Shown here piece after piece: positions 12,787 through 23,714 of a DNA stretch of 64,000 nucleotides. The stretch is taken from assembly GCF_016903815.1 (NCBI RefSeq), contig NZ_CP069973.1; one strand, given 5' to 3'. The stretch is from Escherichia coli (GTDB lineage Bacteria; Pseudomonadota; Gammaproteobacteria; Enterobacterales; Enterobacteriaceae). A program made the position numbers and the translations under genes. The notes under the pieces are model-generated. The model made no database searches, was not told the origin of the DNA, and saw only the letters and a list, made by a program, of their open reading frames with translations. Positions within the stretch are counted from its first letter, which is position 1. Every line of letters begins with the position of its first letter.

Positions 12787-13446
12787 TTACGCACGCTGGA
12801 TTGGATTACGCGCGATTTCCAGCACTGCATCGGTAAAAGCGTTACAGGCTGCTTTACACGCGGCCTGGCTACCGGTTAAAAATGCTGCCGAGTAGTTGGT
12901 TTCAGACGGCGGCGGGACATAGGTCACCAGCTGCACGTCGGCAGATTTCAACGCCGCATCAATGCCGTAGGTCGCTTCCAGCGGCGGTGCCACCAGATAC
13001 GCCATCGGATCGCCAAGCGTGATCCCGGCGGTTGATGAGAGATAAGAACCGGTACGCGAAACTACATGTGCCAGGAAAGCTGTGTTTTCTGCGTCATTAG
13101 CCCACTGGAAAGCCGCGCCATTTTCAATATGCGCAACCATCGCATCCAGACCAGCACGCACTTCCGCCGGGTTTGGCCCACCGAGCATAATCAGCACTTC
13201 ACCGGCAGTCGGTGACGGTCCGTGTGCAGCTCCCGCATACAGCGAGCGGCCATACACCACTTCGACCATCGCCTGCTTGGTCGCTTCGTCAGCCGCAATG
13301 TAGGTGACGTCATCGGAATCAGCAGAAATCAGCCCAAGGCTACGAATATGCGGCGGCAATTTCAGTTCACGCGCAAATTCGGCGTTAACAGAGGCAATCA
13401 CCCGCATGGCGGTGACCGACGGTCGAATCAAATCTAAAGCTGGCAT
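12787..13446 (-). CDS. eutL: Microcompartment shell protein EutL (tandem BMC domain, 219 aa)
   Basis: ORF track 12787..13446. Confidence 0.93.
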
Positions 13447-14363: not shown

Positions 14364-15725
14364 TCAGAAGAACAGTGACGGATCGCCCGCCCATTTGGTC
14401 AGGCGACCGTTTGCCATAATGCCCATGCTTTCCAGCCAGCGTTCAAACTCCGGTGACGGGCGCAGGTTGAGTAACTGACGCACAGTGGCAGTGTCGTGGA
14501 ATGCTGTGGTCTGATAGTTGAGCATGATGTCATCGCCCAGCGGCATCCCCATGATGTAGTTGCAGCCTGCGGTGGCGAGCAGGATCATGAGGTTTTCGTT
14601 GAGGTTCTGGTCAGCGTCAGCGTGGTTGGTGTAGCAGCAGTCACAGCCCATAGAGATGCCGCTCAGCTTACCCATAAAGTGATCTTCTAAGCCCGCACGG
14701 ATAATCTGGCGGTCGTTGTAGAGATACTCCGGCCCAATAAAGCCGACCACGGTGTTGACGATAAACGGATCGTAATGACGCGCCAGCCCGTAGTTACGCG
14801 CTTCCATCGTCACCTGGTCTGCGCCGAAGTTAGCGCCAGCAGACAGCGCCGAACCTTGTCCGGTTTCGAAGTAGAGGCAGTTTTCCCCGGCGATACGATT
14901 GAACTCTGCGCCCACTGCGCGCGCTTCGTCGAGCATCGCCAGCTCCACGCCAAATTCTTTCAGCCCTTTTTCGCTGCCGCAGATACTCTGGAAAATCAGC
15001 CCGCCTGGTGCGCCACGACGGATCGCTTCAATCTGGGTGGTGACGTGCGCCAGCACGCAGCCCTGAGTTGGGATGTTGAATTTGTCGATCACGCCGTAGA
15101 TGGTGTCCAGCACGCGGCTTAAGTTTTCCACGTCGTCCGTCACCGGGTTGACGCCGATCACCGCATCGCCCACCCCGAAGGAAAGCCCTTCGTAGATTTG
15201 CGCAGCGATACTTTGCACGTCGTCACGGGTGTCATTTGGCTGCAAACGGGCGCTGAAGGTGCCCGGAATACCGATGGTGGTATTGGCCTTTTTGATTACC
15301 GGCATTTTCTTCGCGCCGTAGATCAGGTCCGCGTTGGAGCAAATCTTCGCCACCGCCGCGACCACTTCCGAGGTCAACCCTTTGCGGGTAAAGGCAATGT
15401 CGTCCACGCTGGTTTCATCGCTCAGCACATACTCACGCAGTTCGCTGATGCTCCAGTTTTTAATCTGGTTGTAGGCCGTTTCGTTAACATCGTCCTGAAT
15501 CAGCCGCGTCACACAGTCATCTTCATAGGCAATCACCGGATTATTGCGGATGTCCGCTACGGTCATTTCCGACAACACCTGCTTTGCCGCCACGCGCTCC
15601 TGTGAGCTTGCCGCTGCAACGCCCGCCAGCACATCCCCCGAACGCAGTTCGTTGGCTTTAGCCAGCACCTCTTTTACATCCTTAAACTGATATACATTGC
15701 CGAACAATGTGGTCTTTAGTTTCAT
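14364..15725 (-). CDS. eutB: Ethanolamine ammonia-lyase large subunit EutB (453 aa)
   Basis: ORF track 14364..15725; start 11 nt downstream of eutA stop. Confidence 0.95.
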   Translation of the reverse strand: MKLKTTLFGNVYQFKDVKEVLAKANELRSGDVLAGVAAASSQERVAAKQVLSEMTVADIRNNPVIAYEDDCVTRLIQDDVNETAYNQIKNWSISELREYVLSDETSVDDIAFTRKGLTSEVVAAVAKICSNADLIYGAKKMPVIKKANTTIGIPGTFSARLQPNDTRDDVQSIAAQIYEGLSFGVGDAVIGVNPVTDDVENLSRVLDTIYGVIDKFNIPTQGCVLAHVTTQIEAIRRGAPGGLIFQSICGSEKGLKEFGVELAMLDEARAVGAEFNRIAGENCLYFETGQGSALSAGANFGADQVTMEARNYGLARHYDPFIVNTVVGFIGPEYLYNDRQIIRAGLEDHFMGKLSGISMGCDCCYTNHADADQNLNENLMILLATAGCNYIMGMPLGDDIMLNYQTTAFHDTATVRQLLNLRPSPEFERWLESMGIMANGRLTKWAGDPSLFF

Positions 15726-15736
15726 AAGTCGTTCCC

Positions 15737-17140
15737 TCAGGAAGGAAATGCGAGTGATTTCACCGTCACCGGCACAACCGATCCGCCAAAAAGAGGCGTA
15801 CCAATGTCGATATAGTCCCCCGCGCGGACAATCACTTCGTCAATGACTGCCAACGGGAGTTGTTGTAGCTGTGGGCGCAACAACATGCCCAGAGCTTTAC
15901 CAAAGTCCTGCCCGGCCACCACCAGCAGGGGATGCGGATTCGGAAAACGCGCGACGAAATCGACCAGCGCGTTGATGACCGTCAGTACCGCGGCGTAACG
16001 CACAGGCAGCGAGGCGGGAAGCGCCAGCACGTACGCGTCAGAATTGGGATCAAGATCCAGCTGAATCAGCGCCTGTTGCCAGGCACTCACCAGATCCGTT
16101 TCATCAATTGGGATCGCCACCGGCAAATTGCGCAGCGGCAGTTGTACGCCCTCCAGCCAGATTGTGCTGCCAGAGAGCGAAAGGGTATGTGCACCCGCGC
16201 CAATCACCGTGGCGCGTACGGTTTGCGCCGGAAACTGCACGTTCATCTCACGCAGGCGCGGATGGTCATGCAGCGCCGTTGCCAGAAGCGGGCCAATATC
16301 GGCAAAACAGAACGGGTCGGCGGGCTGGTGGCGATAACATTCGCCCACGCCGCCAGAAAGCGTAATGATTTCGGGCGTAACACCTGCGGGCAGCAAACCG
16401 GTTTGCATCAATGCCTGCGCGAGCGGCGAGAGCGTTCCGTCAATCACTTCGACAATCAGCTCTGCCATCCGCCGGGTAACCTGCACCAGCTGCGCGCCGG
16501 TCAGCGAACGGGCGTCGGTGCCTGCGCCGAAGCACTCATCCACAATCATCTGCCCCGGTTTATGAGCGTAAACCACGCGCCCCTGGCTGTCGGTTTCCAG
16601 CAGGCGACCACCGACGTTGAGGCAGGCAGTGCCGCTGATTTTTCCGGCATCGAACAGGGCGTAGTTCGCGGTGCCACCGCCGATGTCGATATTCAGTACC
16701 CGACACAGCCGTTGTTCAGAAAGGGTTTGCGCCCCGGCACCGTGACCGGCGATCACGGATTCGAGATGCGGCCCGGCGCTGGCGACGACAAAATCGCCCA
16801 GCGACTGGGAGAGCGTCATCACCGCCGGGCGAGCGTTGCGGGTTTTCGCGCTTTCACCGGTGATGATGATGGCACCAGAATCAACGCTTTCCGGCGCAAT
16901 GCCCGCAGCCTGATATTGCTCGAGGATTAAGGTTTTCAGTTCCGCTTCTTTTAAACCACCCTGTTTATCGACAGGGGTAAAGAACACCGGGCTTTGCCAG
17001 CTAATTTCGCGTTTGATGAATTCGTAGCGCGGCACCTGCGACACCGCCGCACGGTTAACCAGCTCCAGGTGGGAGAAGATCACCTGGGTGGTGGTGGTGC
17101 CGATATCGATACCGACGCTCAGTAGCTGGCGAGTGTTCAC
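15737..17140 (-). CDS. eutA: Ethanolamine ammonia-lyase reactivase EutA (467 aa)
   Basis: ORF track 15737..17140; GTG start overlapping eutH stop (GTGA). Confidence 0.93.
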   Translation of the reverse strand: MNTRQLLSVGIDIGTTTTQVIFSHLELVNRAAVSQVPRYEFIKREISWQSPVFFTPVDKQGGLKEAELKTLILEQYQAAGIAPESVDSGAIIITGESAKTRNARPAVMTLSQSLGDFVVASAGPHLESVIAGHGAGAQTLSEQRLCRVLNIDIGGGTANYALFDAGKISGTACLNVGGRLLETDSQGRVVYAHKPGQMIVDECFGAGTDARSLTGAQLVQVTRRMAELIVEVIDGTLSPLAQALMQTGLLPAGVTPEIITLSGGVGECYRHQPADPFCFADIGPLLATALHDHPRLREMNVQFPAQTVRATVIGAGAHTLSLSGSTIWLEGVQLPLRNLPVAIPIDETDLVSAWQQALIQLDLDPNSDAYVLALPASLPVRYAAVLTVINALVDFVARFPNPHPLLVVAGQDFGKALGMLLRPQLQQLPLAVIDEVIVRAGDYIDIGTPLFGGSVVPVTVKSLAFPS

Positions 17141-18363: not shown

Positions 18364-18417
18364 CGCCTTTACTCCCTGTTAGTTGTTATTTATTGCCAAT
18401 GCTGAAAGTGGGTTTTT

Positions 18418-18533
18418 CCCTCACTCTGGAAGCCGAGGGGCCGGGGTGAGGGTAATTGTTTGCACCGGCGCGACTCTGTTCCCCTCACCCTAACCCTCTC
18501 CCCAAAGGGGCGAGGGGACTGTCCGTACACTTT
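18418..18533. repeat. Composite GC-rich palindromic intergenic repeat in the eutG-eutH spacer; core unit 18477-18533 has a second copy at 31870-31927; family name not confidently assigned
   Basis: Core tgttcccctcaccctaaccctctccccaaaggggcgaggggactgtccgt recurs almost identically at 31870-31927; upstream related palindrome ccctcac...gtgaggg at 18418-18452. Confidence 0.75.
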
Positions 18534-20556: not shown

Positions 20557-21960
20557 TTAAACAATGCGAAACGCATCGACTAATACACAGCGACGCAGAC
20601 GGACAAACGTCCGCGCGCTGGTTACCCCTTCACCGGTTGGCGTGGTGATGGTCATGGTGGTCCAGCCTTCCCCGCCCAGCCCCAGCCCGGCAATACACGG
20701 TCCGTTCTTAACGAAAATGCTGGTATCAATGGCATTCGCCATCTGGTTCATGTTTTCGATGTTGCGCGAGTGCATTGCCGCCGTGTGATGGCAACCGCCT
20801 TCCAGTTTCACCGCCAGCGCAATGGCATCCGCCACGTTGGCGACGCGCACGACGGGCAGCACCGGCATCATCAGTTCAGTCACAGCAAACGGATGTTCTG
20901 CGGTGGTTTCTACAAACAGCAGTCGCGTTTGTTCCGGAACTTTAAGGCCGATTGCCGCCGCGATTTTCGCCGCATCGCGACCAACCCAGTCACGGCTGAC
21001 GGTGCCTTTTCCGCGCTCGTCGATATTTTTCAGCAACACCGGTTGCAGCTGCTGCGCCTGCTCTGCGGTCAGTTTCACCGCGTGCTGGCCTTCCATCAGA
21101 CGCATCAGTTCATCGGCTACGCTATCCACAACAATCAGTACCTTTTCGTCGGCACAAATGATGTTGTTATCGAAAGACGCGCCTTTGACGATGGACTGAG
21201 CAGCACGGGCGAGGTCAGCGGTTTCATCCACCACTACCGGCGGGTTGCCAGCGCCTGCGGCAATCAGACGTTTATTGGTGTGTTTACGCGCCGCTTCTAC
21301 TACCGCTTCGCCGCCGGTCACCACCAGCAGGCCGATGCCCGGAAACTTGAACAAACGTTGAGCGGTTTCGATATCCGGATTTGCCACAGTAACCAGTAAG
21401 TTTTCCGGCCCGCCTGCGGCAACAATCGCCTGGTTGAGCAGCGTAATCGCCCGCTGGGAGACTTTTTTCGCCGCCGGATGCGGGGCAAAAATGACGCTGT
21501 TGCCCGCGGCAATCAGGCTTATGGCGTTATTAATTACGGTTGCCGCCGGGTTGGTGGACGGAGTTACCGAAGCCACCACGCCCCAGGGCGCGTTTTCAAT
21601 TAAAGTCAGGCCGTTGTCGCCAGTCAGCACCTGCGGAGAGAGGCACTCAACGCCCGGTGTGCCGCGCGCCTGAGCAACGTTTTTGGCAAATTTATCTTCG
21701 ACGCGGCCCATGCCGGTTTCACTGACGGCAAGCTCCGCTAAATCTCTGGCGTGTTTTTCGCCTGCTTCACGAATGGCAGCAATGGCTAACTGGCGCATTG
21801 CCACGCTCTTTAACCCTTGCTGGGCAATTTTGGCTGCCGCAACGGCGTCATCCAGGGACGCGAAAACGCCCATCTCATGAACGGCGGCGGGCGGCGTATC
21901 ACTGCTTTGCATTTTCAGCAGTACCGCTTTCACCACCTGTTCAATATCCTGTTGATTCAT
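20557..21960 (-). CDS. eutE: CoA-acylating acetaldehyde dehydrogenase EutE (467 aa)
   Basis: ORF track 20557..21960. Confidence 0.93.
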   Translation of the reverse strand: MNQQDIEQVVKAVLLKMQSSDTPPAAVHEMGVFASLDDAVAAAKIAQQGLKSVAMRQLAIAAIREAGEKHARDLAELAVSETGMGRVEDKFAKNVAQARGTPGVECLSPQVLTGDNGLTLIENAPWGVVASVTPSTNPAATVINNAISLIAAGNSVIFAPHPAAKKVSQRAITLLNQAIVAAGGPENLLVTVANPDIETAQRLFKFPGIGLLVVTGGEAVVEAARKHTNKRLIAAGAGNPPVVVDETADLARAAQSIVKGASFDNNIICADEKVLIVVDSVADELMRLMEGQHAVKLTAEQAQQLQPVLLKNIDERGKGTVSRDWVGRDAAKIAAAIGLKVPEQTRLLFVETTAEHPFAVTELMMPVLPVVRVANVADAIALAVKLEGGCHHTAAMHSRNIENMNQMANAIDTSIFVKNGPCIAGLGLGGEGWTTMTITTPTGEGVTSARTFVRLRRCVLVDAFRIV

Positions 21961-21971
21961 GATGTTCTGCC

Positions 21972-22259
21972 TTATTTGTGGAAAATTACCTGACCGCCAG
22001 ACACCACCTCATCGACAATGCCAATCACGCACAGATCGACCGGTGACGTTTCGCTTTTATGCGCCTGGCGGGCGGAACTGCCACTCACCAGCAACACCCA
22101 CTCCCCGGTTCCCGCGCCAATATTGTCGATGGCGACGGCGCATTGCCCGTCAGGATTACCTTGTGGATCAATCATTTCCACCATCAGCAATTTGTCATGC
22201 GCCAGTCCGTGATGGCGTACGGTACAAACAATTTGTCCAGTGACGACTGCCAGTTTCAT
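21972..22259 (-). CDS. eutN: Microcompartment vertex protein EutN (95 aa)
   Basis: ORF track 21972..22259; GGAGG SD upstream. Confidence 0.93.
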   Translation of the reverse strand: MKLAVVTGQIVCTVRHHGLAHDKLLMVEMIDPQGNPDGQCAVAIDNIGAGTGEWVLLVSGSSARQAHKSETSPVDLCVIGIVDEVVSGGQVIFHK

Positions 22260-22365
22260 ACCCGCCTCCGTGGCGTATTTCAGGTAAAAGCTCCCCCTAC
22301 CCTCCGCGGAAGGTAAACTGAAAAAGGAGAGAGCGTGACGCCCGAATCGACGTCACACAGGGTGA

Positions 22366-22659
22366 TTACAGGTTGCTGCTATCGCCTTTCAGGCCGATCG
22401 GGAAGACTTCTTCCAGGTCGCCGTGCGGACGCGGGATAACGTGTACAGATACCAGCTCGCCGATACGCTGTGCCGCGGCGGCACCTGCGTCGGTCGCGGC
22501 TTTACAGGCTGCAACATCACCACGAACCATGGCAGTACACAGGCCGCCGCCAATCTGCTTAACACCAACCAGCTTGACGCGCGCAGCTTTCACCATCGCG
22601 TCAGAAGCCTCAATCAGTGCAACCAGGCCCCGGGTTTCGATCATTCCTAATGCTTCCAT
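22366..22659 (-). CDS. eutM: Major microcompartment shell protein EutM (BMC domain, 97 aa)
   Basis: ORF track 22366..22701; start trimmed to ATG 22657-22659 ([26 protein letters not shown]...) with GAGGAAA SD. Confidence 0.92.
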
Positions 22660-22697
22660 TGTGCTTTCCTCTTTATCAGGGTCCAGAACGGGACCGT

Positions 22698-23714
22698 TCA
22701 TTCAACCAGTGTTTGTAAACTGCTTTCGCGGTTCACTTCTGTCTGACGCGGCACAGCTGCCACCAGCGCCAGCTCGATAATTTCCTGCACGCTACAACCA
22801 CGAGAGAGATCGTGCATCGGCGCGGCAAGCCCTTGTATCAATGGCCCGACGGCACGATATCCGCCGAGTCGTTGTGCGATTTTGTAGCCAATATTTCCGG
22901 CTTCCAGCGACGGAAAAACCATCACATTGGCCTTGCCTTGTAGCGGGCTGGCAGGCGCTTTTTGCGCCGCCACTTCCGGCACGAAGGCGGCGTCAAACTG
23001 CAACTCGCCATCCACCACCAGCTTCGGTGCGCGCTCACGGACGATTTCTGTCGCCTGCTGGACGTTGGCAACGCAGGGGTGACGGGCACTACCGTTGCTG
23101 GAAAACGACAGCATCGCCACGCGCGGTTCTTCTCCGGTGATGGCGCGCCAGGTTTCGGCGCTGGCAAGCGCGATATCCGCCAGTTGCGCCGCCGTCGGCT
23201 GTGGCACTACGCTGCAATCGGCAAAGCCCAATGCGGGGCCACTGTACTGTGGCAGCATCAGGAAAATGGAGGAGAGCGTTTTACAGCCTGGCTGTAAGCC
23301 AATAATGCGTAATCCGGCACGCAGCACATTCGCCGTGGAAGAGAGATTGCCCGCGATACAGACATCCGCTGTCCCGGCGCTGACCATTGCGGCAGCGAAC
23401 ATCAGCGGATCGGTGAGTTTTTCCAACGCATCCGGCGGCGTTTTTTCGCCCGCACGGGCCAGCCAGCGGAGAGCAAATTCTTCCCGCATTGCGAGGTTGC
23501 CATGCGGATCTATCACCTGTAGCCCGTCCATCGCCACGCCGTGACTGAGCGCAAACTGACGAAGTTCAAACGGATTGGCGACCAGAATGGGCGTTGCCAG
23601 ACCTTGTTGATGTAAATATTGCGCGGCTTTCAGCACACGTTGATCTAACGCATCCGGAAAAACCACTCTGGCGGGCGCTCGCAACGCCAGTTCACGACAA
23701 CGTTCAATAATCAT
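22698..23714 (-). CDS. eutD: Phosphotransacetylase EutD (338 aa)
   Basis: ORF track 22698..23714. Confidence 0.93.

Follow-up and report, generated by a model that had tools for sequence, protein, structure and literature searches.

The window analysed here is a 64,000-nt stretch of Escherichia coli DNA whose minus strand carries the eut operon. According to the ORF list, the RefSeq annotation and the translations, the junction between its shell protein genes eutM and eutN is organized as follows.

22366-22659, minus strand: eutM coding sequence (97 aa), the upstream cistron, encoding the major hexameric shell protein
22260-22365, minus strand: untranslated eutM-eutN spacer of 106 nt
22257-22269, minus strand: eutN start region, with the Shine-Dalgarno sequence GGAGG (22265-22269), a 5-nt gap and the ATG (22257-22259)
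21972-22259, minus strand: eutN coding sequence (95 aa), the downstream cistron, encoding the pentameric vertex protein

The distance of 106 nt, which had been noted in the original prediction, agrees with the RefSeq gene coordinates. It had also been stated that most eut genes overlap or abut. This is true, but the eutM-eutN gap is itself exceeded by that between eutG and eutH (169 nt); eutK and eutR are separated by 45 nt, eutD and eutM by 38 nt, and most of the remaining junctions overlap or are at most 12 nt long. Among these, the eutA-eutB gap measures 11 nt (window 15725-15737), and the strain of the window is therefore without CPZ-55, the prophage which splits the eut operon between these two genes in K-12. 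Bases 21900-22750 match E. coli strain 7/2 at 100% identity and 5409 records at 95% or more, and the spacer is found in 5407 of 5426 E. coli genomes, at one place per genome (median 1). It carries no annotated feature in the RefSeq entries of strain 7/2, a K-12 isolate and MG1655, and Rfam covariance models gave no match to 21000-23500 on either strand up to E = 10. In the literature searched, no account of this spacer was found.

The RNA transcribed from the spacer is predicted to be highly structured, and its elements are listed here from the eutM side.

22333-22358, minus strand: hairpin 1, GUGUGACGUC-GAUUCG-GGCGUCACGC, 10 bp, -16.2 kcal/mol
22320-22332, minus strand: pyrimidine tract UCUCUCCUUUUUC, which is weak as a U-tract and doubles as the 5' arm of the hairpin 2 outer helix
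22291-22331, minus strand: hairpin 2, a 15-bp composite hairpin (MFE, RNAalifold)
22275-22290, minus strand: A/U-rich segment CUUUUACCUGAAAUAC, predicted to be single-stranded (unpaired in the MFE structure)

Hairpin 1 starts 8 nt past the eutM stop codon. The GUGACG...CGUCAC stem that had been recognized at 22335-22356 is indeed present and extends to 10 bp, and the pyrimidine-rich run described behind it is found there as UCUCUCCUUUUUC. The palindrome centred on CCGCGG at 22301-22313 is likewise real and turns out to be the tip of hairpin 2, which is composed of an outer helix (CUCUCCU/GGGGGAG, the latter being the partner of the pyrimidine tract) and an inner one (UACCUUC-CGCG-GAGGGUA). Starting one base beyond the end of hairpin 1, hairpin 2 abuts it and stacks on it. 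Further downstream, the A/U-rich segment contains a motif, UACCUGAA (22279-22286), which is kept in Escherichia, Citrobacter, Klebsiella spallanzanii, most Buttiauxella and Entomohabitans. The segment may be a site for RNase E or a standby region for ribosomes. The fold of the whole spacer reaches -42.2 kcal/mol with z = -2.0 to -2.7 relative to dinucleotide shuffles; such a z is modest for a single sequence, and it is conservation that carries the weight of the evidence.

The pattern GTGACGYC-N4-24-GRCGTCAC has a single match in the 64 kb, versus none in 100 shuffles. Hairpin 1 is kept in 24 species from six genera, where it is located 5-9 nt past the eutM stop codon with predicted energies of -12 to -18 kcal/mol and loops of 4-20 nt that vary freely. 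Its core of eight pairs is 100% paired in 16 distinct sequences from the six genera. Compensatory changes have occurred at two of these pairs (C-G/U-A/U-G at one, G-C/A-U at the other), the covariation score was matched by none of 500 shuffles, and control alignments slid along the sequence were 22-56% paired. The arms, GUGACGUC and GACGUCAC, are almost unchanged from Escherichia to Buttiauxella, while fourfold-degenerate sites of eutM and eutN show 41-61% identity between E. coli and the distant genera, which is to say that synonymous sites are near saturation. For hairpin 2, aligned across Escherichia, Citrobacter and K. spallanzanii, 97.9% of the cells are paired (slid controls, 53-71%), compensatory changes are observed at three pairs and the covariation score was again matched by 0 of 500 shuffles. 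Within E. coli, spacer polymorphisms are confined to unpaired positions. On the opposite strand, the invariant U·G pairs would turn into C·A mismatches, and the selected structure is therefore that of the eut sense RNA. Both hairpins are thus under purifying selection on the eut mRNA strand.

Two coding candidates overlapping hairpin 1 were rejected. A small sense ORF running through it (GTG start, 19 codons) is preceded by no Shine-Dalgarno sequence, and the loop lengths of the orthologues vary by non-multiples of three; it was set aside on inspection. The other, a 34-codon antisense ORF (22335-22439, plus strand), has its GTG start 5 nt past an AGGAG Shine-Dalgarno sequence; in other species the equivalent frames are different and encode 6-78 aa, so that it is not conserved and is probably a by-product of the sense-strand pyrimidine tract and hairpin.

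In order to compare the junction across species, EutN was searched for in one genome per species, which gave 48 loci, 42 of them with eutM directly upstream. The spacers of these 42 species range from 52 to 211 nt, and two main kinds can be distinguished. The first, defined by hairpin 1, comprises the 24 species mentioned above, which belong to Escherichia, the Citrobacter freundii group and its relatives, K. spallanzanii, Buttiauxella, Entomohabitans and Yokenella. In the second kind (14 species: Salmonella, the K. oxytoca group, K. pneumoniae, C. koseri, C. amalonaticus, C. sedlakii, Pluralibacter and Pseudocitrobacter), hairpin 1 is entirely missing and the spacer instead contains REP-type palindromes, GCCGGATAAG...CATCCGGC, resembling those that are dispersed elsewhere in the window. 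The REP consensus itself (GCCGGATG...CTTATCCGGCCTAC type) is found in the orthologous spacers of Salmonella, Klebsiella, C. koseri, C. amalonaticus and C. sedlakii, and is absent from that of E. coli. As the E. coli spacer is single copy, with hairpin 1 present once per locus, it is therefore no REP-like dispersed repeat, and its assignment as a REP or BIME element was rejected. Other GC-rich hairpins, unrelated to either kind, occupy the spacers of Intestinirhabdus, Pseudomonas nitroreducens and two Rhodocyclaceae.

Despite this diversity of sequence, all 42 spacers contain a hairpin of -11.9 kcal/mol or stronger which starts at most 20 nt past the eutM stop codon, and the whole-spacer z has a median of -2.3. 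As unrelated sequences supply this hairpin in 42 of 42 species, conservation concerns the presence of a stable stop-adjacent hairpin followed by a long untranslated gap. The Salmonella spacer, which had been proposed for comparison, has a stable hairpin by the eutM stop codon but carries REP elements in place of hairpin 1.

K. spallanzanii (L043) has an Escherichia/Citrobacter-type spacer, whereas those of K. oxytoca, K. michiganensis and K. grimontii (L029-L031), to which it is closely related, are REP-type, and three C. amalonaticus-like genomes contain three different REP arrangements. Such differences among close relatives suggest rapid turnover or recombination at the eutM-eutN junction. 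Within E. coli, strain 90-1 (L055, NZ_CP050047.1, 1592-2760) carries a copy of IS911 inside the spacer, inserted after approximately spacer position 79, in the A/U-rich stretch, which parts eutN from the hairpins. Fast turnover between and within species, as in the C. amalonaticus-like genomes and the IS911 strain, is what would be expected if the spacer were a non-functional leftover, such as a decayed insertion, at a junction permissive for palindromic insertions. This explanation is nonetheless very unlikely: both hairpins show purifying selection and compensatory changes, polymorphisms avoid the stems, and neither the retention of the spacer in nearly all E. coli genomes nor the stop-adjacent hairpin in every species examined is what a leftover would be expected to display.

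The original prediction was that the spacer could act as a partial terminator or attenuator lowering the expression of eutN and later genes. The first requirement of a canonical intrinsic terminator, a stable GC-rich stem-loop, is provided by hairpin 1, whose 10-bp conserved stem ends in GC and is followed by a U-containing tract. The canonical U-tract (about 7 U directly 3' of the stem) is missing, however, the tail being UCUCUCCUU with 3 U among its first seven nucleotides, and there is no fit to GC(U)7RU, the reported signature of strong intrinsic terminator sites. In a d'Aubenton-Carafa-type score, which is approximate as it was computed with modern energy parameters, the E. coli tail has nT = 2.0 and d = -20. 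Among the 24 species with hairpin 1, nT is 0.7-2.2 and d is negative in 23, the sole positive score (d = +4.5) being that of one Buttiauxella species with the tail UUUCUUUAAC. A consensus scan flagged hairpin 1, along with other sites: it returned 4 terminator-like sites in 1.7 kb, where 2.1 were expected. A U-rich or pyrimidine tail does follow hairpin 1 in five of the six genera, but Yokenella lacks it, as do all orthologues of the REP type or with other hairpins, although a hairpin is always there. Moreover, pairing within hairpin 2 explains why the tract is conserved in Escherichia and Citrobacter. With a U-tract that is weak and not conserved, hairpin 1 is thus not a canonical intrinsic terminator, and what is conserved at this junction is not canonical intrinsic termination.

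Regarding Rho, the spacer includes a C/U-rich stretch of ~30 nt, but in the predicted fold it is taken up in the stem of hairpin 2. In a published term-seq study performed in media that do not induce eut, no sense-strand end was reported at the junction, the only end being an antisense one within eutM, and the accompanying table of Rho regions, obtained with eut not induced, has no eut entry (PMC7815308). The antisense 3' end, of low score, maps to MG1655 2572217 on the plus strand, corresponding to about window position 22426 (MG1655 coordinate = window + 2549791), inside eutM (PMC7815308, supplementary file 1). Antisense transcription in non-inducing media therefore runs across the spacer or the 3' end of eutM; a scan of the plus-strand sequence found no sigma-70-like promoter for it.

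Published transcript levels bear on this question. In E. coli LF82, the RPKM values in minimal medium/bile salts are: eutS 20/76, eutP 39/166, eutQ 24/192, eutT 13/83, eutD 108/357, eutM 55/177, eutN 5/62, eutE 14/149, eutJ 13/147, eutG 35/168, eutH 106/514, eutA 36/223, eutB 61/358, eutC 47/286, eutL 30/126, eutK 37/94 and eutR 142/308 (PMC6379400). In this table, eutN has the lowest value of the 17 eut genes under both conditions. From eutM to eutN, RPKM drops 2.9-11-fold, a figure to be read with the weak induction of the operon, a library whose strandedness is not stated and the shortness of the genes in mind (PMC6379400); the antisense 3' end within eutM could also inflate the eutM counts. 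It is therefore plausible that expression differs between the two sides of the junction. In Salmonella, shell-gene transcripts have likewise been reported above those of cargo genes (PMC12487888).

The proteins differ far more. In E. coli W3110 grown on ethanolamine with B12, the relative amounts were EutQ 100, EutM 96, EutL 39, EutB 37, EutE 27, EutC 24, EutS 11, EutD 10, EutK 8, EutG 7, EutP 7 and EutN 1, that is, an EutM:EutN ratio of ~96:1 (PMC11334477). Since EutD stands at 10 against 96 for EutM although eutD is also upstream of the hairpins, translation dominates much of this protein pattern.

A partial Rho-independent terminator or attenuator, in which hairpin 1 and its tail would release some polymerases and lower eutN together with all later genes, would be consistent with eutD and eutM having higher RPKM than eutN, eutE and eutJ, by ~2-fold (bile) to ~7-fold (minimal medium) (PMC6379400). 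It is at odds with the behaviour of the genes beyond eutN: eutE and eutJ RNA is 2.4-2.8-fold above that of eutN and back to 0.25-0.84 of eutM, with eutH higher still and the genes from eutH to eutC broadly at or above the level of eutM (PMC6379400), and the EutE, EutB and EutL proteins reach 27-39 times EutN (PMC11334477). The predicted lowering thus does not appear to be sustained in the genes beyond eutN. As the extreme EutM:EutN ratio is specific to eutN, it does not come from termination alone, and the eutN-only dip in RNA, which a terminator alone cannot give, can be given by segmental decay or by poor translation of eutN. Of the proposal of a terminator or attenuator, what stands is a structured and selected RNA at the junction across which RPKM falls; the intrinsic-terminator mechanism itself is unlikely, and any termination activity of the hairpins would be at most weak.

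Low output restricted to eutN directs attention to its translation start. The eutN Shine-Dalgarno sequence forms a duplex of -9.5 kcal/mol, among the strongest in the eut operon, and is invariant in the alignments, as is the ATG. The start region is predicted to be less accessible than that of eutM, with mean unpaired probabilities of 0.33 vs 0.63, but the predicted folds are heterogeneous and show no single structure sequestering the ribosome-binding site across species. In Citrobacter and K. spallanzanii (L007, L008, L043 and relatives), the last 21 nt of the spacer contain a six-codon mini-uORF, ATGCCACGGAGGCGGGTATGA, whose stop codon runs into the eutN ATG; its start codon is replaced by ACG in Escherichia and the frame differs in Buttiauxella, and this candidate was rejected as not conserved.

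RNA that is translated poorly is typically less stable. The spacer could accordingly be viewed as a translational insulator, whose structured gap would stop eutM ribosomes from re-initiating at eutN and whose local structure would limit initiation, the RNA level being secondary. An unstable, poorly translated RNA would then explain the eutN dip (PMC6379400), the low level would be specific to eutN as observed (1, versus 27 for EutE, the next product; PMC11334477), and a spacer of at least 52 nt in every species, when most other eut junctions overlap or are at most 12 nt long, would fit such a function, as would the lower predicted accessibility of the eutN start. This explanation appears quite unlikely, though, given the strong Shine-Dalgarno sequence followed by an ATG at a 5-nt spacing and the heterogeneity of the folds around it. 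In addition, uncoupling requires distance only and not two selected hairpins by the eutM stop codon, and in the pdu operon pduN is low despite a gap of just 3 nt.

Our preferred reading, held tentatively and with somewhat less than even confidence, is that the spacer may be an intercistronic module of REP-like character, whose hairpins would protect the 3' side of the eutM message with at most weak attenuation, eutN being translationally uncoupled. Its mechanism is modelled on REP elements and on the mal, puf and pap operons. Two abutting stable stem-loops would form right behind the eutM stop codon, followed by an exposed A/U-rich stretch and then by an independent ribosome-binding site for eutN. 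By analogy, the hairpins would act as a barrier to 3'-to-5' exonucleases and might also stop a minor fraction of the polymerases. Processing might take place within the A/U-rich stretch (22275-22290), and an RNA ending at the hairpins, or cut just downstream of them, would retain an intact eutM segment. The eutN segment, left with an unprotected 5' end and uncoupled from the heavily translated eutM, would decay sooner. In combination with whatever restricts the translation or the stability of EutN, such a module would contribute to the large excess of the hexamer over the vertex protein.

Two further conserved hairpins flank eutM on its 5' side.

22680-22695, minus strand: small hairpin GGUCC-CGUUCU-GGACC, located ~20 nt before the eutM Shine-Dalgarno sequence within the 38 nt between eutD and eutM
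22715-22736, minus strand: hairpin GUGAAC-CGCGAAAGC-AGUUUAC, within the last codons of eutD

The former (GGUCC-N6-GGACC) is invariant in 20 of 20 aligned Enterobacteriaceae sequences, and the latter shows compensatory changes at five of its seven pairs among 20 species (RNAalifold). These two hairpins may mark where a stable eutM segment begins on its 5' side, or may enhance eutM translation.

Differential expression by intercistronic hairpins is long established, and the eut junction adds a detail to this principle without raising a new question. The classic case of an intercistronic REP stabilizer is malE-malF, attributed to Newbury et al. in 1987, and hairpins conferring segmental mRNA stability were reportedly described in 1988 both for the Rhodobacter puf operon, by Chen and Belasco, and for the E. 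coli papBA operon, by Baga et al. In puf and papBA, the structural protein made in excess is encoded in a hairpin-bounded segment and the neighbouring segments decay faster, which sets the stoichiometry. In a similar manner, eutM is flanked by conserved hairpins on both sides, a likeness that for eut comes from sequence. Operon-internal partial intrinsic terminators are also familiar, from the rplL-rpoB attenuator and from the terminators after fimbrial major-subunit genes. The eut junction resembles these in having a hairpin and a pyrimidine/U-containing tail behind an abundant structural gene with a drop of RNA across it, but differs from them by its weak, non-conserved U-tract and by the recovery of the downstream genes.

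REP elements have been experimentally documented as stabilizers of upstream mRNA and as partial Rho-dependent terminators inside operons, REP325, between yjdM and yjdN, being a recent intercistronic case (bioRxiv 10.64898/2026.03.23.713779). Like them, the E. coli element places a stable stem-loop immediately behind the upstream cistron, which is the more strongly expressed of the two, and its very slot is filled by actual REP sequences in Salmonella, Klebsiella and several Citrobacter. Unlike them, it is single copy, lacks the REP consensus, is neither mobile nor dispersed, and is accompanied by a second, covarying hairpin and by the conserved UACCUGAA motif. The replacement of one by the other across genera amounts to a natural experiment on the interchangeability of REP elements and private hairpins as operon tuners.

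Besides the low level of EutD and the term-seq data, which were taken without eut induction and show no sense-strand end here, two observations count against the protective-module reading. One is the near-invariant sequence of hairpin 1, which exceeds what a generic barrier needs. It could be expected if hairpin 1 were a sequence-specific recognition element, with a protein binding the GUGACGUC and GACGUCAC arms as RNA or as a DNA inverted repeat and exerting regulated control; the arms hardly change across genera whose synonymous sites are near saturation, and a helix-turn-helix domain without a known ligand is found in EutK, one of the Eut shell proteins (PMC5821096). Such a role is nevertheless highly improbable, as many lineages have swapped the whole element for unrelated REP hairpins while keeping the operon, the G·U pairs speak against a DNA palindrome, and no known operator consensus was recognized by inspection. 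Likeness of the TGACGTC arms to the operators of CRP, MetJ or other regulators was considered and rejected on inspection, since the spacing and repeats do not fit. More improbable still is that hairpin 1 would serve as the site of a Eut-encoded or host protein, e.g., the helix-turn-helix domain of EutK, by which shell assembly would feed back on EutM:EutN production.

The other is provided by the pdu operon, which reaches a similar shell stoichiometry without a comparable spacer. Microcompartment shells require many EutM hexamers and very few EutN pentamers, at a ratio of ~100:1, and pdu, where stoichiometry is based on gene order and ribosome-binding sites, likewise requires many hexamers and few pentamers. 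There, pduA and pduB overlap by 4 nt, pduJ and pduK are 3-24 nt apart and pduM and pduN 3 nt apart, with no structured spacer. A hairpin-bearing spacer would therefore be a solution specific to eut and no general microcompartment rule. Within eut, the protective module would be an ordinary kind of operon tuning, which most likely helps to hold the shell-protein message far above the vertex-protein message, and swapping the spacer could offer an engineering handle to shift Eut shell stoichiometry.

Two other large gaps were observed in these operons. In the pdu locus L052, pduE and pduG are separated by 205 nt (12989-13195), compared with ~15 nt in others, possibly as a result of a palindromic insertion. 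In the window, the largest gap of the eut operon, the 169-nt eutG-eutH spacer (18364-18532, minus strand), contains a G/C-rich dispersed repeat, CCCCTCGCCCCTTTGGGGAGAGGGTTAGGGTGAGGGG..., which occurs at 17 places in an E. coli genome (median). Of 5426 E. coli genomes, only 303 share this form of the spacer, the gap being 216 nt in MG1655, and RPKM goes up again at eutH, immediately after it (PMC6379400).
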